Shown here in pieces: positions 2,747 through 51,437 of a DNA stretch of 64,000 nt. Under the pieces are notes generated by a model. The model did no database searches. It had not been told where the DNA came from and was given only the letters and a program-made list of their open reading frames with translations. A program made the translations under genes and the position numbers. Positions within the stretch are counted from its first letter, which is position 1. The number at the start of each line of letters is the position of its first letter. Origin of the DNA: an uncultured Bdellovibrionales bacterium (lineage in GTDB: Bacteria; Patescibacteriota; Minisyncoccia; Moranbacterales; DUUL01); NCBI GenBank assembly GCA_964421125.1, contig CAYQVD010000001.1, positions 56,680-120,679 of the forward strand, read 5' to 3'.

Positions 2747-4411
2747 ATGATCTCAAAAAAATCATTTTCACTTTTCTTTATCGGATTTTCATTGTTATTT
2801 TTCTTATTTGGAACAGTCAATAATACTAATGCTGCAATAATAGGTGAAGATTGTAATGAAGAAAACTCTTGTACAGACGGAACTTATTGCCTTTCTGCAT
2901 ATTGTAGACCTGCATTCAATGGAGGACTCGGAGATGAATGCAATCCAACCGAAGAAATGCCAGCTGGAACAGTTTGTTCTGATGGAATAAGTTTTTGTTA
3001 TGAAGGCAAATGTGCAGAAAAATGTGTTGTTGCTTATGGAAATTTATGTCATACGAATGATCCTTCAATAAGATGTTACCCATCAAAAGAAAATACCCAA
3101 GTTTCAATTTGTAAAACAAAATCATCAATTAATTGGATTGGCGCTCCATGTGGAATTGACATAGGAACTTTTTGTAAAAAAGAAGACCATGATCCCGTTT
3201 CTGGAGAAAAGACCTGCGGACCAGGCCTTGACTTTGCTTGGAGAGGATTTTTTATGTGTAGCCCAACAATAGGAACAGAAACTGAACCAAGTGTTAATCT
3301 CTCATGTTGCAAACCAGCATCGGAGACAGCAAAAGTACCTTGCCCTGATCTTAAATATGGAGCACTTTGTGCTAATAATAATGGATATTGTTATGATGGA
3401 TTGTGTGAACCTGAACCAGGAAAAGAAGTAGGTGCTTTATGCGGAAACGATGGAGGAACTTGCCAAGGAGACCCAGGATGGACTGAAATTTGTCCAGGAA
3501 TGACGACTTGGGATAGTGTTTCAGGAAGAGATTGCGATAAAACTGCATCAGGGCAAGAACTTAATTGTTGCATAGATAACAATTACCTACCTGACAGTAC
3601 TTGTGTTAATAAAACAAATGGTGAATCATGCGGTAATGGTGGTTATTGTTATGATGGAATATGCTCTGAATTCGGACTAGGCACCTTAGATGAGAAATGC
3701 GGAGCTCATGACGGACACTGTGTTATTGGAATAAAAGAGAATAATATTTGGTCATGCCCAGAAAGTGCTCCGCAAAGAGACAATGCGGAAAGAAAATGTG
3801 ATATAGGAAGTGATCCAGATAATAACCCAATTCTTTGTTGTACAATTCCTCCTACTGCTTCTCCTACTCCAACCCCAAACCCAATTAACATATCAGATTT
3901 CAATCCTACATACAAAGCATGTGCAGGAACTCAGCCAAGAGAAGGAATTGTGGGAGGAATGGGAATGTTTAGCGGATCAATTGTCCCTTGTGGAAGAAGT
4001 TGTGATGACCTCGGAACTCCAACCAACGAAATGAAAGAATGCACAATTTGTCATTTCATTCTGATGGGGAAAAGAATTTATGACCTAGTTCTTTCTTTGC
4101 TTATTATTGTTTCAATTGTTATGCTTACAGCCAGTGGAATTCTTTACATGTTTTCTGGAGCCAATCCAGAACTAAATTCTACTGCTAAAGAAATTGTTAC
4201 CAAAACACTAATTGGCTTTGCCTTATTCCTAGGAAGCTGGTTGATAGTCAGCACGATTCTTATTCTCATTTCTTATAATAGTGCCTTCTTGGGAACTGGA
4301 GGAAAATGGTATAATTTCTCTTGTGACACTACTAGCAAATTTCAAGCTAAAGATGACCAAGGGAATCAATCATGGCAAAACCCAAACAACTTAAATATCC
4401 CTGTCAATTAG
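2747..4411 (+). CDS. Secreted Cys-rich repeat protein fused to a C-terminal TrbC/VirB2-like pilin hairpin (two TM helices)
   Basis: Signal peptide followed by repeated GYCYDG(L/I)C Cys-rich modules and a Pro/Thr linker (PTASPTPTPNP). The C-terminal hydrophobic hairpin (LVLSLLIIVSIVMLTASGILYMFSGANPELNSTAKEIV...FALFLGSWLIVSTILILISY) is of the same type as the downstream pilin genes. Confidence 0.6.
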   Translation: MISKKSFSLFFIGFSLLFFLFGTVNNTNAAIIGEDCNEENSCTDGTYCLSAYCRPAFNGGLGDECNPTEEMPAGTVCSDGISFCYEGKCAEKCVVAYGNLCHTNDPSIRCYPSKENTQVSICKTKSSINWIGAPCGIDIGTFCKKEDHDPVSGEKTCGPGLDFAWRGFFMCSPTIGTETEPSVNLSCCKPASETAKVPCPDLKYGALCANNNGYCYDGLCEPEPGKEVGALCGNDGGTCQGDPGWTEICPGMTTWDSVSGRDCDKTASGQELNCCIDNNYLPDSTCVNKTNGESCGNGGYCYDGICSEFGLGTLDEKCGAHDGHCVIGIKENNIWSCPESAPQRDNAERKCDIGSDPDNNPILCCTIPPTASPTPTPNPINISDFNPTYKACAGTQPREGIVGGMGMFSGSIVPCGRSCDDLGTPTNEMKECTICHFILMGKRIYDLVLSLLIIVSIVMLTASGILYMFSGANPELNSTAKEIVTKTLIGFALFLGSWLIVSTILILISYNSAFLGTGGKWYNFSCDTTSKFQAKDDQGNQSWQNPNNLNIPVN

Positions 4412-12525: not shown

Positions 12526-12688
12526 GAATTATACATGATTTTTTTCTATTAGTAAACCCTCAAGCATACCTTCATAAAAAGAATTAAAAAATAATTAAAA
12601 CGCATTATATAAATTTACACATCTTAAACAACAAAAAATCCTCACACCTGGCAAGGACTTTTGTATAGAAAATCTATTAAAGTAAAAA

Positions 12689-12931
12689 CTATTTTTTCTT
12701 TTTAGTAGCTTTTCTTTTTTTTGTCTTCTTAGCTGTCTTCTTTTTTGGAGTAGCTTTTCTTTTTTTTGTCTTCTTAGCTGTCTTCTTTTTTGGAGCAGCT
12801 TTTTTCTTGGTAACTTTTTTAGTAGCTTTCTTTTTAGAAGTTTTTTTAGCTACTCTTTTTTTTGGAGCAGCTTTTCTTTTTGTTGTTTTTTTAGCAGTTT
12901 TTTTCTTCTTCTTAGTTGGCATAAATTTCAC
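12689..12931 (-). CDS. Lys/Ala-rich histone H1-like basic protein (KKxAKKTxKRKA repeats)
   Basis: 80-aa ORF that is almost entirely K/A/T. Strong RBS (gaaaggaaggtgaaatttATG). Internal DNA repeats of about 33 bp encode the peptide repeats. Resembles bacterial Hc1/H1-like nucleoid proteins. Confidence 0.55.
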   Translation of the reverse strand: MKFMPTKKKKKTAKKTTKRKAAPKKRVAKKTSKKKATKKVTKKKAAPKKKTAKKTKKRKATPKKKTAKKTKKRKATKKKK

Positions 12932-13032
12932 CTTCCTTTCTATTTTAATTTTTTATTTTATTTTTTTAAGCATAACTGAATTATAAAGCAAAAATTAAAT
13001 TGTGCAAACATTTTTTAAAATACAAAACCCCG

Positions 13033-33591: not shown

Positions 33592-35703
33592 ATGTTAGAA
33601 GCAAAGAAGTTTTCCACTGAAATTGCTGGAAAACAACTTGTTGTTGAAGCAGGTCTTTTGGCTCAACAAGCTGGTGGTTCTGTAACAGTGCGTTATGGAG
33701 ACACCATGGTACTTTCAACTGCCACTATGAGCAGTCGAAAGGTAACTGAAATCGACTATTTTCCTTTAATGGTTGATTATGAAGAAAAGTATTATGCTGC
33801 TGGGAAAATTAAAGGATCTCGATTTATCAAAAGAGAAGGACGACCTTCTGATGATGCTGTTTTAACATCACGTCTTATCGACCGAACAATTCGGCCTCTT
33901 TTTGATGAAAGAATGAGAAATGAAGTTCAAGTAATTGCAACTGTTCTCTCAATTGATCATGAAAATGACCCAGATCTAGTTGCTTTGATTGCTGCATCTC
34001 TTGCGATTGGAATCTCAGATATTCCATGGGCTGGTCCAGTAGCTGCAGTTCGAATTGGAAAAAATGGGGAAGAGCTAGTTACAAATCCTCTAATGGAATC
34101 ATATCCTGATTCACAACTTAATTTACTTGTTTCTGGAACAGAAGAACGAATCAATATGATGGAGGCTGGAGCAAATGAATTACCAGATTCAGAAATGTTT
34201 GAAGCAATCAAACAAGCTTTTGATGTGATCAAAGAAATTGCTGTTTTTGAAAAGAAAATTATCAAAGAAATTGGAAAAGAAAAAGCTCAAATTGAATTCA
34301 TTGAACCAGAAAAAGACTTTAAAAAGGGAATTATTTCATTCCTTGACAATGAAGGACTTGAAAATGCTTTTTATACTAAAGAGAAAAAAGAGCAAGATGA
34401 AAAAATGGGTGCCATCAAAGAAAAAATGGGTGAATATCTTACAGACAAATTTACTGACGAAGATGAGTTGGCAAAAAAGAAAGCAGAAGCTGATCTTGTT
34501 TTTGAACAATACCTTAATGATGTTCTTCACCGAAGAATTCTTGAAAAAGATGAACGACCAGATGGACGAAAACTTGATGAAGTTCGATCAATTGATTGTC
34601 AAACCAATCTTCTTCCAAGGACTCATGGTTCTGGACTTTTCACTCGAGGTGACACTCAAGCCTTGACTGTAGCAACTCTTGGAGCTCCTGGAGCAGAACA
34701 AATTGTTGATACTATGGAAGCAGATGAAAAGAAACGATATATTCATTATTACAACTTCCCTCCATACAGTGTTGGAGAAGTTCGATTCCTTCGAGGACCA
34801 GGACGAAGAGAAATTGGTCATGGAGCTCTTGCAGAAAAAGCTCTTATTCCAATGATTCCTTCAAAAGAAGAATTTCCATACACTATTCTTTTAATGAGTG
34901 AAATTCTTGGATCAAACGGTTCATCATCAATGGCATCCACTTGTGGTTCAACTCTTGCATTAATGGACGCTGGAGTGCCAATCAAGAAACCTGTTAGTGG
35001 AATCGCTATGGGAATCGTGACTGGAGAGAAAGGAGAATTCAAAGTGCTTTCAGATATCCAAGGACCAGAAGATCACTGGGGAGATATGGACTTCAAGATC
35101 GCTGGAACAAAAGATGGAATCACTGCAATGCAACTTGATGTGAAGATTGATGGAATCACTCCTGATATGGTTGAAAAAGTTTTCTCACAAGCCTATGACA
35201 ACCGAGTCTTCATTCTTGGAAAAATTGCTGAAACTCTTGAGGTACCGAAGAAAAAACTTTCTCCATATGCACCAAGCATCATCACAATCAACATTAACCC
35301 TGACAAAATCAGAGACGTCATCGGACCAGGTGGAAAAATGATTAATGAAATCATTGATACTACTGGAGTTGAAATCGATATCGAAGACGATGGAAGTGTT
35401 TTCATTACCGCTAAAGATGGAGAATCTGGACAACAAGCCAGAGAATGGGTTGAAAAGCTTACCAAGGAAGTTCAGATTGATGAAATCTATGATGGGAAAA
35501 TTGTAAAAATCATGGACTTCGGAGCTTTCACTGAAATTCTTCCAGGTCGAGACGGACTTATTCATATTTCTGAAATTTCAGATAAGCGTGTTGAAAAAGT
35601 TGAAGATCATTTGAAAGTTGGACAAATCGTTCAAGTAAGAGTCAAAGAAGTTGACCCTCAAGGAAAGATCAGTCTTACTATGAAAAATGTAAACAAAGAA
35701 TAA
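33592..35703 (+). CDS. pnp: Polyribonucleotide nucleotidyltransferase (PNPase)
   Basis: 703 aa with two RNase PH domains and C-terminal KH and S1 domains (GKMINEIIDTTGV; S1 IYDGKIVKIMDFGAF). Confidence 0.95.
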   Translation: MLEAKKFSTEIAGKQLVVEAGLLAQQAGGSVTVRYGDTMVLSTATMSSRKVTEIDYFPLMVDYEEKYYAAGKIKGSRFIKREGRPSDDAVLTSRLIDRTIRPLFDERMRNEVQVIATVLSIDHENDPDLVALIAASLAIGISDIPWAGPVAAVRIGKNGEELVTNPLMESYPDSQLNLLVSGTEERINMMEAGANELPDSEMFEAIKQAFDVIKEIAVFEKKIIKEIGKEKAQIEFIEPEKDFKKGIISFLDNEGLENAFYTKEKKEQDEKMGAIKEKMGEYLTDKFTDEDELAKKKAEADLVFEQYLNDVLHRRILEKDERPDGRKLDEVRSIDCQTNLLPRTHGSGLFTRGDTQALTVATLGAPGAEQIVDTMEADEKKRYIHYYNFPPYSVGEVRFLRGPGRREIGHGALAEKALIPMIPSKEEFPYTILLMSEILGSNGSSSMASTCGSTLALMDAGVPIKKPVSGIAMGIVTGEKGEFKVLSDIQGPEDHWGDMDFKIAGTKDGITAMQLDVKIDGITPDMVEKVFSQAYDNRVFILGKIAETLEVPKKKLSPYAPSIITININPDKIRDVIGPGGKMINEIIDTTGVEIDIEDDGSVFITAKDGESGQQAREWVEKLTKEVQIDEIYDGKIVKIMDFGAFTEILPGRDGLIHISEISDKRVEKVEDHLKVGQIVQVRVKEVDPQGKISLTMKNVNKE

Positions 35704-37805: not shown

Positions 37806-37887
37806 AATTTAAAATAATTTCTTTTTTTATTGTTTTTGTGTTACAATGTTTTTACTATTTTGAAAAACAAAAATTAACTTTAAAAAA

Positions 37888-39300
37888 ATGTTTGGAAACA
37901 AAAAAACAAGTGCTTCAAGTGACAACGATATTCAGCTAACAACTCGCTCAATGAAAAGTGATCTTGAAGGTGATTCTAGTAAAAAATTTGTAGAAAAAGA
38001 AAGAAAACCTCTTTCGAAAGCTCCTGAGAGAAAGAAGGAGTTAGAGATTCACAAAAAACCAGAAATTAAAAAAGTTCCAGAACCAATTGCAACACCAGCG
38101 AAAAGCTTTGATCTACCAACCAAAAAACCCCTTAGATCTACCACTCAGCCACAAATCAAAGAATCTGGAGAATTTAAACTGCCAACAGATTTTCCTGCTG
38201 CCAACAAAATGCCTGCCAAAACAACAGTTGACAAGTCACTTGAAAAACAATTCGGGGATAAGAAAGAAAAAACTCACGCTAATGATTTTTCTCCAGAAAA
38301 TAAGTCAAAGGAAGAATTTCCAAAAAATCCAATAATTAATCCTAAAAAAGAACCTGTACAAAGCGCTAAATTAAAACCAATAAACCCTGCTCTAAAGAAA
38401 GACTATGATAAATTCTTTAAAGATAAAATTAGTCCACTTCCAGAAAAGGAAAACAAAAATAGTTCATCAAGCATGATTCTAGTAATCATCCTTGTGATTG
38501 TTTTAATTATCGCAATTGCCTCTGGAACGTACTATTACTTTTTTGTAATCAATAAACCCGTAACACCAACTGAATTACCAATTATATCCGATCCAACACC
38601 AATCTTCCCTGTTGATTCAACGCCGGTTCAACCCCCTAAAGAACCTCTTCCAATCGTTTTAACAGAAGCAAGTGAGATGATAATAACTGCCGAAAAAGAT
38701 ACAAGAGTTATTTTTTTCGACCCTCAAAATTCTGAAAATCTCATCTCTGGATTCTATTCCATTGAGAATGAAGAAGGGCTACTAATGAATGTCAAAGACC
38801 TTTCAACTTTATTAAACATTCAAATGCCAGAATCTATTGAAACTGCTTCACAAAATGCATGGATTTACTACGATGCAACAATCACACCAAAAATTAGCCT
38901 TGTAATTAAGATTGACTCCAAAGATACATACGAAGTGAAAAATTCTATTATGAATATTGAAAATAATCTTCCAATTATGTTTTCAGGACTTTACTCAGCT
39001 CCTATTGATAAATATTCAACAGGGGAAACAGTAATCTTTAAAGATAGTTTTGAAAATTTAAATTTTCGATATTACAATATTTCAACAACTCCGTCTGACT
39101 TAAAATCGCTTGATTGGGGAATAATTAATAACGATACTATTTTAGTTTTTGCTACATCAAAAGAAATGGCTTCAACTATCTCAAATCAATTATTGATCAA
39201 TGATATTCCAAATAATACAACTAAGGAGGTTATATTAGAGAATACCCCTGAGGATGTTACTCCCGGAGATATTCTTGAAAATGAAGCAGTTGTGGATTAA
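37888..39300 (+). CDS. Membrane-anchored (single TM, Lys/Pro-rich cytoplasmic N-terminus) protein with extracytoplasmic domain; paralog A
   Basis: TM ILVIILVIVLIIAIASGTYYYFFV. The C-terminal 80 aa are identical to those of 39543..40583. Confidence 0.55.
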   Translation: MFGNKKTSASSDNDIQLTTRSMKSDLEGDSSKKFVEKERKPLSKAPERKKELEIHKKPEIKKVPEPIATPAKSFDLPTKKPLRSTTQPQIKESGEFKLPTDFPAANKMPAKTTVDKSLEKQFGDKKEKTHANDFSPENKSKEEFPKNPIINPKKEPVQSAKLKPINPALKKDYDKFFKDKISPLPEKENKNSSSSMILVIILVIVLIIAIASGTYYYFFVINKPVTPTELPIISDPTPIFPVDSTPVQPPKEPLPIVLTEASEMIITAEKDTRVIFFDPQNSENLISGFYSIENEEGLLMNVKDLSTLLNIQMPESIETASQNAWIYYDATITPKISLVIKIDSKDTYEVKNSIMNIENNLPIMFSGLYSAPIDKYSTGETVIFKDSFENLNFRYYNISTTPSDLKSLDWGIINNDTILVFATSKEMASTISNQLLINDIPNNTTKEVILENTPEDVTPGDILENEAVVD

Positions 39301-39402
39301 TTGTGGATAACTTTCAATGAAAATATCACGACTTTGCATTAAAAAGTTTTTGCAAAAACTTCGAAATGCCATTGTTTAAAAGCATTATCAGGTAAATTAA
39401 GT
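39085..39402 (+). repeat. 318-bp direct repeat, copy 1 (3' end of paralog A plus about 100 bp of 3' flank), identical to 40368..40685
   Basis: Base-for-base identity read directly, including a 16-bp perfect palindrome agtttttgcaaaaact at 39345..39360. Confidence 0.8.
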
Positions 39403-39542
39403 AAAAAAAGAACCAGAAACCAAAGCAAAACCCTTATTCCTTGAGACATGGGGATGTGAGAAAAGAAATGAACGAGAAAATGAACTAATTAGAGTGATTA
39501 AAAAATTAATACAAGAAGAGGAGGAGAAATTAAAACATAATC

Positions 39543-40583
39543 TTGCTAAAAAAATTAAGAGAAGAAAAAAATATGAATCATAAAGTTATTAACCCAGAAA
39601 GTGCTCGAAATAATACTATGAAAGAAAAACCGCTAACAATTACTAAAAATAAAACATTATCTAGTTCAAGGGAAACCATTACTCCTGCATCCAAAGACTA
39701 TGATAAGTTTTTCAAAGACAAGATTAAAAAATCTCCAGAAAAAGAAGAAAAAAATGCATCATCAAGTCTCACTCTTATTATTATTCTTATAGTTATTTTA
39801 ATCATTACAATTGTTTCTGGCTTTTATTATTATTTCTTTGTGCTCAGTAAGACACCAATTCCAGTTAAGCCACCAATTACCATTGAACCAGATCTAAATT
39901 TTCCAGTTGAGCCACTGGCTGAAAAAGCTTTTCCTTTTGTATTGACAAACTCACCTGAAATAGTACTAACTACTAAAAATGACATTAAGGTTATTTTATT
40001 CGACCCTCAAAATCCTGAGAATCTTACATCTAACTTCTATTCCATTAAAAACGAAGGAGGCATGGCAATGAACATCAAGGAACTTTCACTTCTCCTTGGA
40101 ATTCAAATACCCGAAATTATTAACGCCACACCTGAAAACACTTGGATTTATTATAACTCATCAGCAACGCCTGAAATTAGCCTTGTTATTGGTATTGATA
40201 TAGAAGATGCCGTGGAAATAAAACAATCAATCCTGAAAATGGAAAACGAACTTCCAAAGATGATGTCGGGTTTATATTCAACTCCTATTATTGAATATCT
40301 AATTGAGAAAACATTGTTATTTAAGGATAGTTCTGATGATCAAGCTTTCCGATATTACAATTTTGCAACAACTCCGTCTGACTTAAAATCGCTTGATTGG
40401 GGAATAATTAATAACGATACTATTTTAGTTTTTGCTACATCAAAAGAAATGGCTTCAACTATCTCAAATCAATTATTGATCAATGATATTCCAAATAATA
40501 CAACTAAGGAGGTTATATTAGAGAATACCCCTGAGGATGTTACTCCCGGAGATATTCTTGAAAATGAAGCAGTTGTGGATTAA
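39543..40583 (+). CDS. Membrane-anchored protein, paralog B (tandem duplicate of 37888..39300)
   Basis: Same TM and ectodomain architecture (KDYDKFFKDKI...SSS-TM). C-terminus identical to paralog A. The true start may be the Met at 39573. Confidence 0.55.
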   Translation: MLKKLREEKNMNHKVINPESARNNTMKEKPLTITKNKTLSSSRETITPASKDYDKFFKDKIKKSPEKEEKNASSSLTLIIILIVILIITIVSGFYYYFFVLSKTPIPVKPPITIEPDLNFPVEPLAEKAFPFVLTNSPEIVLTTKNDIKVILFDPQNPENLTSNFYSIKNEGGMAMNIKELSLLLGIQIPEIINATPENTWIYYNSSATPEISLVIGIDIEDAVEIKQSILKMENELPKMMSGLYSTPIIEYLIEKTLLFKDSSDDQAFRYYNFATTPSDLKSLDWGIINNDTILVFATSKEMASTISNQLLINDIPNNTTKEVILENTPEDVTPGDILENEAVVD

Positions 40584-40685
40584 TTGTGGATAACTTTCAA
40601 TGAAAATATCACGACTTTGCATTAAAAAGTTTTTGCAAAAACTTCGAAATGCCATTGTTTAAAAGCATTATCAGGTAAATTAAGT
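40368..40685 (+). repeat. 318-bp direct repeat, copy 2
   Basis: Identical to 39085..39402. Palindrome agtttttgcaaaaact at 40628..40643. Confidence 0.8.
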
Positions 40686-40692
40686 GAAAGAA

Positions 40693-40721
40693 TTGACCGT
40701 TGCCTCAAAAAATGCTATAAT
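40693..40721 (+). promoter_or_regulatory. Near-consensus sigma70-type promoter: -35 TTGACC, 17-bp spacer, extended -10 TGcTATAAT
   Basis: ttgacc gttgcctcaaaaaatgc tataat, read directly. No protein-coding ORF of 60 aa or more follows for about 470 bp. Confidence 0.55.
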
Positions 40722-40727
40722 AGACAT

Positions 40728-41160
40728 GTAAGTTAGTTCTTTAGAAAAAATCTGACATTTCATGGGTTGCAATGAACTTCAGCGAGATGAACTCCAGCCA
40801 CGATTTCCCCCTATTCGTGACTGGAATTCATCTTACTGTTTCATTTCATCTTTAAAAACAAAAATAAAAAAAGATCACCCAAAAACAAAAACAAAAATTG
40901 AGTAAAATCATGAAATGGTTAGATGAAACATCACTTAATTAAGTGATACCTCCCAATCTTGATATTAAAAAACTTAGTATTATATTTTGTTTTCGGACGA
41001 AATAAATCTATTTTAAATCAAGACTGGTACCGGTGGCGCTAGCCACATATTAATTTTTTTGGGCTCAGCGCCCCGGTTTCCTTACTAAAACCAAAATGCA
41101 CCGGTTACAGATTCAGACAAGAACGACTCACTTGAGGCCGTTTTTTTTATTAAACTTTTC
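40728..41160 (+). ncRNA. Candidate noncoding transcript or long structured leader. AT-rich 5' part, then a GC-rich 3' part with stable hairpins and three palindromic CCGGT sites, ending in a T8 run
   Basis: Predicted from the upstream promoter. Contains gtggc-gcta-gccac and gggc-tcagc-gccc hairpins, ACCGGT at two sites, and tttttttt at 41149..41156. Only 51-aa and 10-aa ORFs without RBS. Confidence 0.35.
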
Positions 41161-41191
41161 AATATATTTAAATTAATGCTATAATATTAAT

Positions 41192-42976
41192 ATGACAAAT
41201 ATACATATAGAAAGAAAAATTGAAGTTAATCGTTGGTTAATAAAAGCTCGTTGGTTTTACGGATTTGGTATTTTTTTAATTGGTATTGTTTCAAAAATTC
41301 TTAGTAACTCTAATGTAAACTTCTCGGTTATCAACATGCTTACATTGATAATAGTTTTTACTTTAATTAATGTTGTTTTTGAAATATCCTTTCGTCAGAT
41401 TCGCAAAAAACGCTCTATCCGAGGATTAAACATCCTCAGTTTTTCTCAAATGGCCGTTGAACTTGGGATCCTGCTTATTGTAATGCATTCCGCTGGAGGA
41501 GTAGAAAGCATTGGAATTACATTCTTTTTCATACCAATCGTTTCTGCTTCCTATTTATTCAGTGCTAAAGGTTCAATAATAACTGCTATTGCTTCAACCG
41601 TCCTTGTTAATGCCTTAGTAACATTAGAGTACTTTGAGATCATTCCCCACGTAGCAAGATACAACACTCCTTCTCCTGAGCTAAACAGCCTAGCTCTATC
41701 CTTAACTATAACCATAACAATTTCAATATTTTATCTAATAATAGGAGTCTATAGTGGATATGGAGCAAAACTTCTCTTTAAACGAGAAGAACTTCTGGAA
41801 AATCAAAAAAAGCAACTTAGTAAAAAAACTAAACTTCTCTCCAATCGTGAAAAAACTTTGTCCAATATAAACGCTGAATTAACTGAAGAAAAAAACAAGA
41901 TAGGATCAATTGTTGCCAACTTTACTGGTCCGATTATATTTATAAATAGTAAAAAAGAAATTGGGCTTATCAATCCATCTGCAAAGGAAGTTTTAGGAAT
42001 TAGCGAAAATGATTATGGTGTAAAAATTTCATCTAAAAATAACTACAGCTTGGATAATTTTAATAAGCTAATAAAAAATGAATTTGAAATTCAAAGTCAT
42101 GAAGGAGAAATGGATGAAAACAACAAACCAATTGAGGAAGTTGAAATTAAATATGAGGATCAAACTAAAACATATAAAGTAATAACCACTTCTGTATGTC
42201 GAGGGAAAGACAAGGATGCTTGTTATGGATTTCTAAAAATATTCTATGACTTAACTCGAGAAAAACAAATTGATAAACTAAAATCAGAATTTATCTCCAT
42301 TGCCGCTCATCAACTTAGAACGCCTCTCTCTGCAATTAAATGGGTAATCAAGATGATTCTAGATAAAGACGTTGGACCTCTTAACAAAGAACAATCTGAA
42401 TTACTTGAAAAGGGGTACAAAAGCAATGAAAGAATTATTGAGTTAGTAAATGACCTTTTGAATGTTTCAAGAATCGAAGAAGGAAGATTTGGTTATGATT
42501 TCAATATGTGTGATCTTCAGGAAATTCTTGACATTGTTACAGAAGACACTGAAAGATTTATCGCAAAAAATCATCAAAAATTTCTCATTAATAAACCAGA
42601 GAATCTACCAAAAATCTATATGGACAAAGAACGAGTTCTTTTGATTATTCAGAATCTTCTAGATAATGCAGTAAAATACACTCCAGAGTTTGGCAAAATT
42701 GAAATTAATATAAAAAAACAAAATGATGAATTTATTGAAATTTCTGTTCAAGATAACGGAGTTGGTGTACCTGAAGAAGATAAAATTAAATTATTTTCAA
42801 AATTTTTCCGAGCAAAGAACGTAATACGAATGGAGACCGAGGGAAGTGGACTCGGATTATTCATTGCTAAAAACATCGTAGAAAAACATCACGGTCAAAT
42901 ATCTGTTGAAAGCAGAGAAGGAAAAGGAACAACGGTTAGTTTTACATTGCCTCTCAAAAAGAGTAACATGGAATAA
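41192..42976 (+). CDS. Membrane-bound sensor histidine kinase (6-TM sensor domain, coiled coil, PAS-like, HisKA, HATPase_c)
   Basis: H-box FISIAAHQLRTPLSAIKW; N, G1 and G2 boxes (LLDNAVKYT, DNGVGV, GSGLGLFIAKNIV). Extended -10 TGcTATAAT ends 5 nt before the ATG, so the mRNA is possibly leaderless. Confidence 0.85.
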   Translation: MTNIHIERKIEVNRWLIKARWFYGFGIFLIGIVSKILSNSNVNFSVINMLTLIIVFTLINVVFEISFRQIRKKRSIRGLNILSFSQMAVELGILLIVMHSAGGVESIGITFFFIPIVSASYLFSAKGSIITAIASTVLVNALVTLEYFEIIPHVARYNTPSPELNSLALSLTITITISIFYLIIGVYSGYGAKLLFKREELLENQKKQLSKKTKLLSNREKTLSNINAELTEEKNKIGSIVANFTGPIIFINSKKEIGLINPSAKEVLGISENDYGVKISSKNNYSLDNFNKLIKNEFEIQSHEGEMDENNKPIEEVEIKYEDQTKTYKVITTSVCRGKDKDACYGFLKIFYDLTREKQIDKLKSEFISIAAHQLRTPLSAIKWVIKMILDKDVGPLNKEQSELLEKGYKSNERIIELVNDLLNVSRIEEGRFGYDFNMCDLQEILDIVTEDTERFIAKNHQKFLINKPENLPKIYMDKERVLLIIQNLLDNAVKYTPEFGKIEINIKKQNDEFIEISVQDNGVGVPEEDKIKLFSKFFRAKNVIRMETEGSGLGLFIAKNIVEKHHGQISVESREGKGTTVSFTLPLKKSNME

Positions 42977-48041: not shown

Positions 48042-51000
48042 TCAACTTTTCAACCAAAAATTGATTTCTATACCATCAATTTTTACTTGTTTTTCAATGT
48101 CAGCTTCTGGTTTTTGATTGCCAGCTTTTCCAAGCTTGATTGCTAATACTTCCTTGGAAATTTCTGTCTTAAACTTTTCAAAAATTTCTTCCCCACCTTT
48201 ATAAAAGACCTCTATCCGATCATCAATCTGAAAATCAGCTTCTTTTCGAGCTTGTTGAATGTGACGAATAAGCTCTCGCATCTGACCTTCGATTTTGAGT
48301 TCAGGGGTAATTGTTGTAATAACTCCTAAAACTGCTATTTCAAAAAAATCAACAGTGGGAGTGTCTCCTTCATTAGATGGCTCACTTTTAACCCCCAAAG
48401 AAATTGCGACATCATTAGACTCTTTAATTTCATTAACCCTCGTAATGAGCTTAACATTTAACTCTTCTTTTATGATGTCGTTAATTTCATTGTTTAATTT
48501 TTCAATAATTTGAACTTCTGAAAGTGGTTGCCTGACTTTTATTTTCTGAGATGCTCGCACCTCTAACCCCCTCTTAACCAATTCTCGCGCAGAAGCCATC
48601 TCCTCGTTCAATTCCTTGTTAATCATTTTCTTATCAGCAATTGGGAAATCACAAAGGTGGACAGATTCTCCCTCTGTTAAATTTCTATAAATTTCTTCGG
48701 AGATGAAAGGAGCGAATGGTGCTAAAACCTTTGAAAATTCAGTCAGAACTGTCCAAAGCGTTTGATAGGCATCATTCTTGTCGTCATCACTTTCACTTTT
48801 CCAAAACCTCTTTCTACTTCTCCTGATATACCAATTAGAAAGATTGTCAACAAATTGTGGGAAAAATCTAGTTGCTTTATTCAACTCATATTTCTCCATC
48901 GCTGAATCAACATCTCGAATCAACATATTTAATTCTGATAAAATCCATTTATCCAATAAGTTTTTTGGTTCAACTTTTTCTCCTGGAGTCCAGTTATCAA
49001 TGCTGGCATAAAGAGTGAAAAATGAATAAGAATTTTGAATCATTCGAAACATCCCTCGAGAAAATTCAGAAAGCTCTTTTTCTGAAAAATTCAAATTCTG
49101 AGCACGAACAACTGGCGAATGAAGAAGATAAAATCTCAAAATATCTGCTCCGTATTTTTCAATCATCTCGGTTGGATCTGGATAATTCTGAAGTTTTTTT
49201 GCCATTTTCTTTCCATCTTCCGCCAAAACAATTCCATTCACAATTACATTTTGAAAGGCTTTTTTGTCAAAAATCCCAACAGCAATAGCGTGAAGATAAT
49301 AAAACCATGCCCTGGTTTGATCAATCCCTTCAGCAATAAACTCGGCTGGGAAACTTTTTTCAAATTTTTCTTTATTTTCAAACGGATAATGTACCTGAGC
49401 ATATGGCATTGAACCACTGTCAAACCAGGTATCCAATACATCTGGAATTCTTTTCATTTCTTTTTTACATTTTTCACAAGGAAAGGTAATCTCATCAACT
49501 ACATGCTTGTGAAGATCTTTAACTTTCTTACCACTCAAGTCTTCAAGCTCCTTCGCACTTCCCAAGACTTTCATTTCTCCACATTCACACTTCCAAATCG
49601 GCATTACAGATGCCCAATAACGCTGACGACTGATTGACCAATCTCTCGCTCCTTCAAGCCAGTTACCCCAACGACCTTCTTTAATATTATCAGGTTCCCA
49701 ATTAAGCTCCTTAGCATGTTCTAGCATTTTTTCTTTAATTTTTGTAATCGCCACAAACCAAGAAGATGTCGCATAATTTATCAAAGGCGTATCACACCTC
49801 CAACAATGCGGATAGCTATGTTCGTATTTCTTTTTTGAAAAAAGAAGGCTATTGTGTGCAAGATATTTAATAATTTCAATATCGGTTTTCTGATGATCAT
49901 CGCGAGGCTTCACTGAAAGTCCTGCAAAATCTTTAGCTTCAGCTTTAATCGCTCCATTCATTCCAACGTGCTGAATAAAGGGTAAGTTATTTTCTTTTCC
50001 AAAATTCATATCATCTTCACCAAAAGCAGGAGCGATATGAACAACTCCAGTCCCTTCTTCAGTCGTCACAAAATCTCCTGCATAAATCTTCCAACCATTT
50101 TCTTTATTTTCTAAACTATCTTGACTTGAATAATAATCAAAAAGAGGCTTATAATTCAGACCAATCAATTCTTTCCCTTTAATTTCAATTACAAAATCAT
50201 AATTCTTATCATTAAAAACCTCATTAATTCTATCTTTTGCTAAAATATAAAAATCATTTTCATGTTTTACTAAAAAATATTTAACATCTTTGCCAATAGC
50301 CAATGCAACATTTCCAATCAATGTCCATGGAGTAGTTGTCCAAGCCAAAACATAAACTCGTGGAGGACTTTTTTCTGTTTCCTCATCCGCTCTTTTTGCC
50401 TTATCCTTAAGATAAGATTTTATAGCATTTTCCGTCGGCTCGTAATCTATTTCGGGCAAATTATCAAAAGAAAACCATTCAATCTTTTCTGTTTCATCAG
50501 GCACTAAATTTTCTGGTTCACCTTTTATCCTGGTTAGATAACAAACTGTATCAAAAAGTCGTCCTTCTATAAACTCTGGATTGTGAATAATTGGCTCTGC
50601 TAATTCAATATTAACCCCTAGTTCTTCTTTTATTTCTCGTTCAAGTGCTTGACGAAAAGTCTCTCCTTCATCAACTTTACCCCCAGGCATAGCCCAAGTT
50701 TCTCGACGTCTGTCCTCTTTACGACGAATAAGTAATATCTCATCTTTATCATTAAAGATAAGCGCACCTACCCCTCGGCCAGTTTTACCCTTACAATATT
50801 TTAATTCAAATTTAGATATTACAGAAAGATCCTTAATATCTTTATATCCTTCTGAAATTTCAGTTTGCGAAAGAGTTGTTTCACATCGAGGACAAATATG
50901 CATCGACCGATATCCCTCATAAATCAGATCTTTTTCATAAAGCTTTTTGAACACCCACCAAACTGATTCCATATATTCAAGGTCCATAGTTTTATAACTA

Positions 51001-51437
51001 TTGTCCATATCAGCCCAACGTCCCATTTTCTCAATAACCTTTTCCCATTCTTCCACATAGCCCAAAACCTTAGTCCGACAGGTTTCATTGAACTTTTCTA
51101 CTCCCAATTCTTCAATTTCCTTTTTATTAGAAATTCCAAGGTCTTTTTCTGCAATATTTTCAATTGGTAATCCATGACAATCCCAACCCCATCGACGTTC
51201 CACTCGAAAGCCTTTCATTGTCCAATAACGCGGGATAACATCTTTCATGGTACTTCCTACAATATGACCATAATGAGGAGCTCCTGTTGCAAAAGGAGGG
51301 CCATCATAGAAACTATAGAGCTTTTTCTCACTTCTTTGTTCCACAGACTTCTCAAAAGTTTTATTTTCTTTCCAATACTCAGTTTGCTCATTTTCCATTT
51401 CTGAATATTTCCTTCTTGTATCTACTGGTTTGAACAT
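48042..51437 (-). CDS. ileS: Isoleucyl-tRNA synthetase (type 2, eukaryote/archaeal-like) carrying an embedded Nudix hydrolase domain
   Basis: N-terminus MFKPVD...EYWKENKTF; HIGH region YDGPPFATGAPHYGH; editing domain AWTTTPWTLIGN and TGVVHIAPAFGEDD; KMSKS variant GKKMAKKLQNYPDP. Residues about 216-345 insert GALIFNDKDEILLIRRKED...PGGKVDEGETFRQALEREIKEELGV (perfect Nudix box). Confidence 0.9.
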   Translation of the reverse strand: MFKPVDTRRKYSEMENEQTEYWKENKTFEKSVEQRSEKKLYSFYDGPPFATGAPHYGHIVGSTMKDVIPRYWTMKGFRVERRWGWDCHGLPIENIAEKDLGISNKKEIEELGVEKFNETCRTKVLGYVEEWEKVIEKMGRWADMDNSYKTMDLEYMESVWWVFKKLYEKDLIYEGYRSMHICPRCETTLSQTEISEGYKDIKDLSVISKFELKYCKGKTGRGVGALIFNDKDEILLIRRKEDRRRETWAMPGGKVDEGETFRQALEREIKEELGVNIELAEPIIHNPEFIEGRLFDTVCYLTRIKGEPENLVPDETEKIEWFSFDNLPEIDYEPTENAIKSYLKDKAKRADEETEKSPPRVYVLAWTTTPWTLIGNVALAIGKDVKYFLVKHENDFYILAKDRINEVFNDKNYDFVIEIKGKELIGLNYKPLFDYYSSQDSLENKENGWKIYAGDFVTTEEGTGVVHIAPAFGEDDMNFGKENNLPFIQHVGMNGAIKAEAKDFAGLSVKPRDDHQKTDIEIIKYLAHNSLLFSKKKYEHSYPHCWRCDTPLINYATSSWFVAITKIKEKMLEHAKELNWEPDNIKEGRWGNWLEGARDWSISRQRYWASVMPIWKCECGEMKVLGSAKELEDLSGKKVKDLHKHVVDEITFPCEKCKKEMKRIPDVLDTWFDSGSMPYAQVHYPFENKEKFEKSFPAEFIAEGIDQTRAWFYYLHAIAVGIFDKKAFQNVIVNGIVLAEDGKKMAKKLQNYPDPTEMIEKYGADILRFYLLHSPVVRAQNLNFSEKELSEFSRGMFRMIQNSYSFFTLYASIDNWTPGEKVEPKNLLDKWILSELNMLIRDVDSAMEKYELNKATRFFPQFVDNLSNWYIRRSRKRFWKSESDDDKNDAYQTLWTVLTEFSKVLAPFAPFISEEIYRNLTEGESVHLCDFPIADKKMINKELNEEMASARELVKRGLEVRASQKIKVRQPLSEVQIIEKLNNEINDIIKEELNVKLITRVNEIKESNDVAISLGVKSEPSNEGDTPTVDFFEIAVLGVITTITPELKIEGQMRELIRHIQQARKEADFQIDDRIEVFYKGGEEIFEKFKTEISKEVLAIKLGKAGNQKPEADIEKQVKIDGIEINFWLKS

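Follow-up and report, generated by a model that had tools for sequence, protein, structure and literature searches.

What is encoded between a tandem pair of genes of one family, here called gene X, and a sensor-kinase operon in a 64,000-nucleotide (nt) stretch of Patescibacteria DNA (contig CAYQVD010000001.1, positions 56,680 to 120,679; hereafter the window), where a strong promoter is followed by no convincing open reading frame (ORF)? A first-pass annotation had remarked on this promoter, on a GC-rich structured 3′ region with ACCGGT palindromes and on a run of Ts ahead of the kinase gene. It offered three explanations: a small RNA (sRNA), a riboswitch or attenuator of the kinase operon, and regulator-binding sites at the DNA level. 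By comparison with related loci we find that the region very likely holds a structured RNA gene on the plus strand. As judged from sequence comparison, this RNA is a previously uncatalogued family of large structured non-coding RNA (ncRNA) in Patescibacteria. The explanation that we favour as a whole, to which we give a probability of about 0.5, is an independent, trans-acting structured ncRNA that probably binds protein and possibly works together with protein X. Coordinates of all features are collected in Table 1.

A conserved transcription unit without a conserved reading frame

Seven other metagenomic loci carry the RNA, four of them as distinct complete copies (L002, L088, L089 and L090) and three cut by contig ends (L100, L101 and L102); there is in addition one duplicate. 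The window and the four complete relatives make up the five-copy alignment used for the structure, while the helices P3 and P4 were compared in eight sequences including the three partial, more distant ones. In L002/L003 (kinase 72% identical in amino acids, aa) a 630-nt gap can be aligned to the window over the whole span between the −35 box and the U-tract, and in L002 the gene upstream of this gap codes for a protein of 410 aa that is homologous to X of the window. In L088, L089 and L090, X is followed by at least 700 nt without a called gene, which contain the RNA element, and in L100, L101 and L102 we find X, tandem repeats, the promoter and the start of the RNA, reaching the contig ends. 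Within the window the element is single-copy.

Conservation of the RNA is bounded by its transcription signals, running from promoter to U-tract. In the four complete relatives identity to the window is 86–93% in the promoter, 73–85% in the RNA body and 65–87% in the terminator; it is 50–63% in the spacer after X and 46–57% in the 3′ tail of the RNA, and protein X is 41–51% identical in amino acids to the window's copies. The promoter is as strong as first described, scoring 11/12 with an extended −10 element in addition, and is the top promoter-like site within 39500–42000; the same TTGACC...TGCTATAAT arrangement is also found in L100, L101 and L102. At the other end, the T8 run lies at 41141–41148 as had been noted, at a distance of 43 nt, not 35 nt, from the kinase ATG (41192). 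GGCCG or GGCGG followed by U7–8 is kept in 5/5 complete copies, and in L090 the terminator forms a clean stem, CGCC-AAGA-GGCG. The locus thus has what is expected of an independent ncRNA gene, namely its own conserved promoter and terminator with conservation confined between them, with the caveat that the terminator stems are weak. As a separate feature of one relative, two direct repeats of ~48 nt (AATTTGC..GCAAATTATTTAACAGGG...ACCCAGTTAAATAAAAAT) stand directly after the RNA terminator in L089 (2159–2299).

No protein product suggests itself. The ORFs after the promoter are one of 47 aa (40762–40905; previously given as 51 aa) and a 10-aa AUG-initiated one (40911), with none longer than 47 aa, and no ORF in the RNA region is conserved across the relatives, where frames and stops differ; in L090 the 10-aa ORF is interrupted by a stop at its codon 2. 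A frame running through P3 is AUG-initiated in 6/8 sequences and has no start codon in L101 and L102, and its amino-acid changes track the compensatory changes of the RNA. These small-ORF readings (47 aa, 10 aa and the P3 frame) were discarded for want of conserved starts, frames and ends, and the initial view that no credible ORF follows the promoter holds.

Searches against known RNA families gave no match either. With the 4227 models of Rfam 15, which include OLE, 6S, tmRNA, RNase P, SRP, ROOL, GOLLD, raiA, HEARO and all riboswitch classes, nothing reached the gathering score in the region of the window, L002, L088, L089 or L090. At E≤10 with permissive filters nothing credible appeared: the best match, IS128, reached 24 bits (gathering score 80), and the rest were microRNA models or noise. 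Riboswitch families had no match even at E≤10, in keeping with the failure of the first pass to recognise a riboswitch class, and ARAGORN found no tmRNA. The GC richness of the 3′ part, also pointed out before, is real (40–42% against a background of ~30%) but modest, since nearby coding sequence reaches up to 44%.

A closed fold supported by compensatory changes

The 423-nt stretch folds far better than shuffled sequences (z −7.8 on the plus and −9.7 on the minus strand). The RNAalifold consensus of the five complete copies has 105 pairs, with 94.4% of cells paired. Compensatory changes fall in 15 of the 105 pairs compared to 6.2±1.9 in shuffled alignments, none of 500 of which reached 15, and sliding the partners by 1–3 columns as a control left 1–3 compensated pairs. 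The comparative alignment, proposed with the first-pass annotation as a check for covariation, therefore did reveal it, and the compensatory base changes by which ncRNA structure is recognised are present in the five-copy consensus and, for P3 and P4, in eight sequences. Of the explanations originally offered it is the sRNA or ncRNA that is borne out by promoter-to-U-tract conservation, covarying helices and the lack of a conserved ORF.

The predicted structure is enclosed by P1, in which the 5′ end pairs with a site ~65 nt short of the 3′ end; this helix is invariant except for one A·C in L089. The single-stranded joiner that follows carries one substitution in L090, and A-G-y-U-C-U-U-U is retained in L100–L102. 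At this joiner L090 has an extra hairpin of 164 nt (2369–2532), closed by 11 perfect pairs and with a z of −7.5, which represents a variable expansion domain or else a small element that has been inserted. The long-range helix P2 shows compensatory changes in 3/12 pairs and G-U/A-U alternation at two more. P3 is the best sampled helix: across eight sequences 97.4% of its cells are paired and 5 pairs are compensated, as in the change from CCAGCCACGA/UCGUGACUGG to CCAAUCGCAA/UUGCGAUUGG in L100. In the A-rich tract just one weak 4-bp local helix is predicted, its placement differing between predictions, and the tract is conserved in L101 and L102. Hairpins that differ from each other are inserted between P3 and the A-rich tract in L101 (~2905–2955) and in L102 (~2415–2460), two contigs coding for the same X protein; this is a second variable site in the RNA. 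In P5 one outer-stem pair and four inner-stem pairs have changed in a compensatory manner.

The two small hairpins that the first pass had described, GTGGC-GCTA-GCCAC (41033–41046) and GGGC-TCAGC-GCCC (41061–41073), both exist as alternatives within P6, but the long helix is energetically favoured (−30 kcal/mol, z −5.4). Likewise, the two ACCGGT palindromes and the third CCGGT are all present, but the palindrome is lost in relatives, where site 1 reads TCCGGT in three and site 3 reads ACCGGA in three. What is conserved is a core of CCGGUG at site 1, CCCCGG at site 2 and CACCGG at site 3, the last being kept in 5/5 copies as an island in an otherwise variable 3′ tail. Conservation of these cores without the palindrome fits pairing in RNA, which explains the CCGG observation at the RNA level and speaks against ACCGGT as a set of DNA-level regulator sites. 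Site 1 can pair with site 2 (in P6) or with site 3, about equally well in local folds, the pairing with site 3 being preferred when the tail is included. This may be a conformational alternative; since all three sites are invariant, covariation gives no signal here.

The RNA is likely to be independent of the kinase operon

An extended −10 promoter stands between the U-tract and the kinase gene and ends so close to its ATG that the kinase mRNA is probably leaderless. AATGCTATAAT is found at the same distance from the ATG in L002, in L088 and in L001, which is without the RNA. L001 carries the closest kinase orthologue found (77% aa identity) and is arranged as TrmB gene, 35 nt, kinase gene. 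The two closest kinase orthologues with a readable context thus disagree, L001 being without the RNA and L002/L003 having it. Further kinase relatives (L084–L087, 57–59% identity) stand in other contexts, with upstream gaps of 20–25 nt and no RNA. In L088 and L089 there are ~90 extra nt after the U-tract, which in L088 lie between the U-tract and the kinase promoter. Among 80 Patescibacteria kinase loci searched with nhmmer (single sequence and profile) and by hmmsearch of six-frame ORFs, neither the RNA nor X was found.

A riboswitch or attenuator is expected to have no promoter between itself and its gene and to co-occur with the gene that it regulates. Here TGCTATAAT at 41177–41185 intervenes, and the RNA tracks X, not the kinase. 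Because of the intervening promoter, the RNA-less kinase orthologues and the travelling of the RNA with X, we do not regard the RNA as a leader of the kinase operon, as the first-pass annotation had considered, and its independence of that operon is likely.

The RNA travels with gene X

In 8/8 loci with a readable X context, including those of distant homologues, the RNA comes after X. Upstream of X stands TrmB in the close relatives and PNPase in L101 (1–1222); as L101 has PNPase rather than TrmB in this place, the conserved unit is X plus RNA, not RNA plus kinase. The nearness of PNPase to X, seen in the window as well, may reflect synteny conserved across the region or else hint at a functional connection with RNA turnover.

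Protein X has a conserved N-terminal motif (MFGNKK...LTTRSMKSDLEG), ~170 disordered lysine-rich residues and one predicted transmembrane helix, and matches no Pfam, NCBIfam or PADLOC family. A search with X returned a handful of close homologues, and a profile search of 1.8 billion representative proteins gave an X family of ~250 clusters with the same length and architecture. The distant members looked up, P0128 (E 6e-59) and P0130 (E 6e-33), led to locus L100 and to loci L101 and L102, respectively. The RNA family's spread is potentially as wide as these ~250 clusters.

In the window X is duplicated in tandem (37888–39403 and 39543–40686), the 3′ ends being identical in the two units, which also have the DnaA-like repeats and the 34-nt palindrome in common. 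The duplication is recent, and its breakpoint falls just before the RNA promoter. The DnaA-like boxes (40574–40582 and 40585–40593) belong to two tandem repeats that overlap the X stop codon, ~100 nt upstream of the RNA's −35 box; a second set follows the first X copy (39289–39311). All 8 loci retain the repeat pair (TGTGGATAA or TGTTGATAA, twice), which could be a site for DnaA, or for another regulator, acting on the RNA promoter. A replication origin was considered and rejected: there are only two boxes per copy, no enrichment across the window (27 boxes against 19 expected) and no GC-skew switch here. The core of the palindrome, AAAAGTTTTYGYAAAAAC, is present in L089, L090 and L100 and missing from L002, L088 and L101; the palindrome is probably a terminator of X, or an operator.

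A further possible tie to X comes from the 12-mer AAAAACAAAAAU (in DNA AAAAACAAAAAT) that occurs twice in the A-rich tract. The window has 5 copies (37863, 17776 on the minus strand, 23402, 40854 and 40887) compared to 0.54 expected, a 9-fold enrichment. Of those outside the RNA, the one at 37863 falls in the 5′ untranslated region (UTR) of gene X, and another immediately precedes a different ATG. The 12-mer may be an A-rich translation-initiation motif independent of a Shine-Dalgarno (SD) sequence, or a protein-binding motif.

Other sources of DNA yielded little. A metagenome scan with the 19-mer ACGATTTCCCCCTATTCGT gave one true match, the window's own organism (L095), and four chance matches in GC-rich DNA; as a pattern this 19-mer is too strict, since L100 and L101 differ within it. 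In viral contigs no RNA was found with two RNA-specific DNA patterns or with protein X, and the four matches of a third pattern were not recognised by profile search. The RNA was likewise not found in phage genomes and plasmids. Because nothing turned up in these three sources, an origin from a mobile element or phage is unsupported.

Setting of the locus

Low in GC (~31%), the window belongs to a bacterial genome; the genes around the locus include rpsB, tsf, PNPase, a TrmB-type regulator, a histidine kinase cluster with a response regulator, and IleRS. Those homologues of the 41192–42976 kinase that are named stem from metagenome bins of Patescibacteria (the candidate phyla radiation, CPR). 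Two features of the wider window are recorded here. The IleRS gene (48042–51437, minus strand) has a NUDIX hydrolase domain (residues 219–331) inside its class I synthetase domain match (20–782). A tandem repeat at 12654–12952 (period 45 nt, 5 copies), T- and C-rich on the plus strand, probably corresponds to a Lys/Ala-rich repetitive protein segment encoded on the minus strand.

Table 1. Positions of the RNA, its predicted structural elements and the neighbouring features (window numbering unless a locus is named)
Feature	Position	Strand	Remarks
PNPase gene	33592–35703		2.2 kb upstream of X in the window
Gene X, copy 1	37888–39300	+	470 aa
Gene X, copy 2, 5′-truncated	39543–40583	+	346 aa
Two tandem 11-nt repeats, TTGTGGATTAA / TTGTGGATAAC	40572–40594		each with DnaA-box-like TGTGGAT(T/A)A
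34-nt AT-rich palindrome GCATTAAAAAGTTTTTGCAAAAACTTCGAAATGC	40619–40652		between X and RNA promoter; identical copy at 39336–39369 after first X
Sigma-70-type promoter of RNA	40693–40721	+	TTGACC, 17 nt, TGcTATAAT
ncRNA, ~420 nt	40726–41148	+	start from −10 box, end from U-tract, both inferred
P1, GUAAG with CUUAC	40728–40732 / 41081–41085	+	short helix closing the structured core
Single-stranded joiner UUAGUUCUUU	40733–40742	+	nearly unchanged in five complete copies
P2, long-range	40750–40761 with 40912–40924	+	encloses P3 and A-rich tract
P3a and P3	40771–40845	+	P3 (40780–40838) is a 21-bp hairpin
P3 apical loop UUUCCCCCUAU	40804–40814	+	11 nt, C-rich; identical in all eight sequences
A-rich tract, ~65 nt	40846–40911	+	predicted mostly unpaired; two exact AAAAACAAAAAU (40854–40865, 40887–40898) and AUCACCC
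P4 hairpin, AUCACUU-AAUU-AAGUGAU	40930–40947	+	compensatory changes in 4–5/7 pairs
C-rich linker CCUCCC	40949–40954	+	unpaired; CUCCC kept in all copies reaching the linker
P5, long hairpin	40953–41027	+	inner stem 40981–41006 with UUCG tetraloop cap
CCGG sites 1, 2 and 3	ACCGGT 41029–41034, CCGGT 41073–41077, ACCGGT 41100–41105		all present
P6, CCGG-u-GGCGCU-AGCC with GGCU-AGCGCC-CCGG	41030–41076	+	stems identical in five complete copies
CACCGG (site 3)	41099–41104	+	complementary to CCGGUG (41030–41035), 5′ strand of P6
Weak hairpin and U7–8	41120–41148	+	likely intrinsic terminator of RNA
Kinase operon extended −10 promoter TGCTATAAT	41177–41185	+	between U-tract and kinase; ends 6 nt before ATG 41192
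Kinase promoter in relatives	L001 1030–1047; L002 ~3990–4003
Kinase gene	41192–42976	+	ATG at 41192, downstream of RNA

Proposed mode of action and alternatives

We propose that the RNA would be transcribed from its own near-consensus sigma-70 promoter, end at the U-tract and act in trans as a stable RNA that binds protein or serves as a scaffold. To its partners it would offer three binding surfaces: the invariant loop UUUCCCCCUAU, the linker CUCCC and the A-rich tract. Protein X, in which a lysine-rich, disordered N-terminal region of roughly 190 residues comes before the transmembrane helix, would probably work together with the RNA. A protein-binding or ribonucleoprotein (RNP) mode, rather than base-pairing, is suggested by the strong promoter, the length of ~420 nt, the P1-closed core, the invariant stems (upper P3 and P6) and the conserved unpaired loop, linker and tract; we put it forward tentatively, at slightly less than even odds. 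A functional link to X we judge evenly balanced; a link with the translation or binding of X is suggested by the 12-mer, since it is 9-fold enriched and common to the RNA and the X 5′ UTR.

The main rival is a base-pairing role of the C-rich loop, that is a trans-acting sRNA whose loop UUUCCCCCUAU, CUCCC and AUCACCC would pair with G-rich or SD-like mRNA sequences. The Firmicutes sRNAs RsaE/RoxS use C-rich loops in this manner, to pair with G-rich ribosome-binding sites, and the present RNA is like them in having conserved unpaired C-runs on hairpins with the potential for such pairing. Three unpaired C-rich motifs are conserved, one being the invariant loop on a covarying stem, and a promoter and terminator of its own would suit an sRNA too. 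However, a length of 420 nt, 3–4 times that of RsaE/RoxS, and a closed, multi-domain, six-helix architecture with invariant stems are atypical of seed-pairing sRNAs, and there is no homology to RsaE/RoxS. No significant target was found in the window, where the best for the loop scores −19.3 kcal/mol (15566) compared to −14.9 to −19.4 kcal/mol for shuffled loops, which is a weak test. The neighbouring genes, moreover, seem to have either no leader or one that is A-rich and lacks an SD. We therefore consider base-pairing unlikely as the principal mode.

An RNA acting in cis on the kinase operon, as attenuator, riboswitch or processive read-through element with alternative CCGG pairing gating passage of the U-tract, would account for its position upstream of the kinase operon in all three loci with a known downstream gene (window, L002 and L088), for the weak terminator and for the ability of CCGGUG to pair with CCCCGG or with the conserved CACCGG of the tail. 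The alternative pairing does not, however, overlap the terminator stem, and the conserved promoter 6 nt before the ATG, the ~90 nt ahead of it in L088, the RNA-less L001 orthologue, the association with X and the lack of a riboswitch family match all make a leader improbable. Function of the minus strand, as an antisense-oriented RNA toward the 3′ end of X, is less probable again. The window copy alone does fold better there (−136.3 compared to −115.8 kcal/mol on the plus strand), because P3 of this copy contains three C·A mismatches, each of which would read as G·U on the minus strand, but the same positions pair as G-U, A-U and U-A on the plus strand in relatives. Moreover, the plus strand folds as well or better in 4/5 complete copies, the consensus is −92.9 (plus) compared to −78.4 kcal/mol (minus), the helices predicted on both strands, and so strand-neutral, contain 9 G-U pairs on the plus and 2 on the minus strand, and the conserved promoter and U-tract both read on the plus strand. 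Least probable of all, by a small further step, is that the region acts as DNA (through operator sites, or as an element resembling an origin, with DnaA boxes) or that it codes for a small protein (MNSSHDFPLFVTGTHL...). The conserved upstream pair of DnaA-box-like repeats and the frequent AUG-initiated frame across P3 would favour such readings, but compensatory changes and G-U pairs indicate pairing in RNA, ACCGGT is not conserved as a palindrome, and two boxes stand alone, with no enrichment and no GC-skew switch. As for a small protein, L101 and L102 are without a start codon, C-terminus and length vary everywhere, and the AUG is buried in the P3 stem.

Several observations weigh against a trans-acting ncRNA linked to X, or temper the evidence for it, in addition to the minus-strand preference of the window copy. 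The transcription start and 3′ end are positions inferred from the promoter and the U-tract. Terminator stems are weak, the tail folding no better than shuffled sequences (z −1.7 to +1.1), so that read-through into the kinase operon is possible. Near-invariant P1 is neither supported nor contradicted by covariation, and in P6, whose stems do not vary, covariation favours neither the long helix nor the two local hairpins. The linkage of X and RNA could be simply conserved gene order, and the difference at L001 is a single event of loss or gain. Finally, the sample is five distinct complete and three partial sequences, and as several copies are close relatives the shuffle test overstates significance.

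Relation to known RNAs and significance

Large (>400 nt) conserved structured bacterial RNAs without an assigned function are rare, and earlier examples proved to be ribozymes, RNP scaffolds and guide RNAs. The present RNA is, like raiA, ROOL, GOLLD, HEARO/omega RNA and 6S RNA, a large bacterial ncRNA that was recognised from conservation and covariation; none of these families is among its cmscan matches at E≤10. It has neither a neighbouring IscB/TnpB nor a prophage context, and its architecture is not the one typical of 6S RNA, a single long irregular hairpin with a bubble at its centre. Among RNAs that sequester proteins by repeated single-stranded motifs, CrcZ and CrcY carry A-rich Hfq/Crc sites and CsrB and RsmZ carry GGA sites, CrcZ being ~400 nt long. 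Our RNA resembles this group in size, in its own strong promoter and terminator and in repeated AAnAAnAA-type motifs in an unpaired tract. It differs in having two exact AAAAACAAAAAU repeats within a mostly compact conserved fold instead of a succession of hairpins that each bear a motif, none of Hfq, Crc and CsrA was identified as its partner, and there is no Rfam match.

The nearest analogy, without homology, is OLE RNA of Bacillota, which forms a membrane-bound RNP with the membrane protein OapA (PMC12265935, PMC11332333). Both RNAs are large, elaborately folded and highly conserved with long invariant stretches, the chemistry of both is unexplained, and both are encoded beside a membrane-protein gene, which here is a matter of gene adjacency alone (8/8 loci). 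On the other hand, OLE is not among the cmscan matches at E≤10, and it measures ~600 nt compared to ~420 nt here. It also belongs to another phylum, its gene order is reversed, and X has one transmembrane helix and no similarity to OapA. By this analogy one might speculate, and we think it rather unlikely, that RNA and X form a Patescibacteria-specific membrane-anchored RNP, an independent OLE-like invention of the ultra-small CPR bacteria. The RNA of such a particle might serve as a structural element, as a sensor or even as a catalyst, and the conserved tandem boxes upstream might couple its transcription to DnaA.

What these results correct is a tempting mis-annotation, since the RNA is not the riboswitch or leader of a sensor-kinase operon that its position suggests. 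Patescibacteria genomes are tiny and have little non-coding DNA, and a strongly promoted RNA of 420 nt that is conserved across lineages is therefore likely to be important to them. Its strict pairing with X, a family of ~250 sequence clusters, provides a concrete hypothesis for two uncharacterised partners at once.

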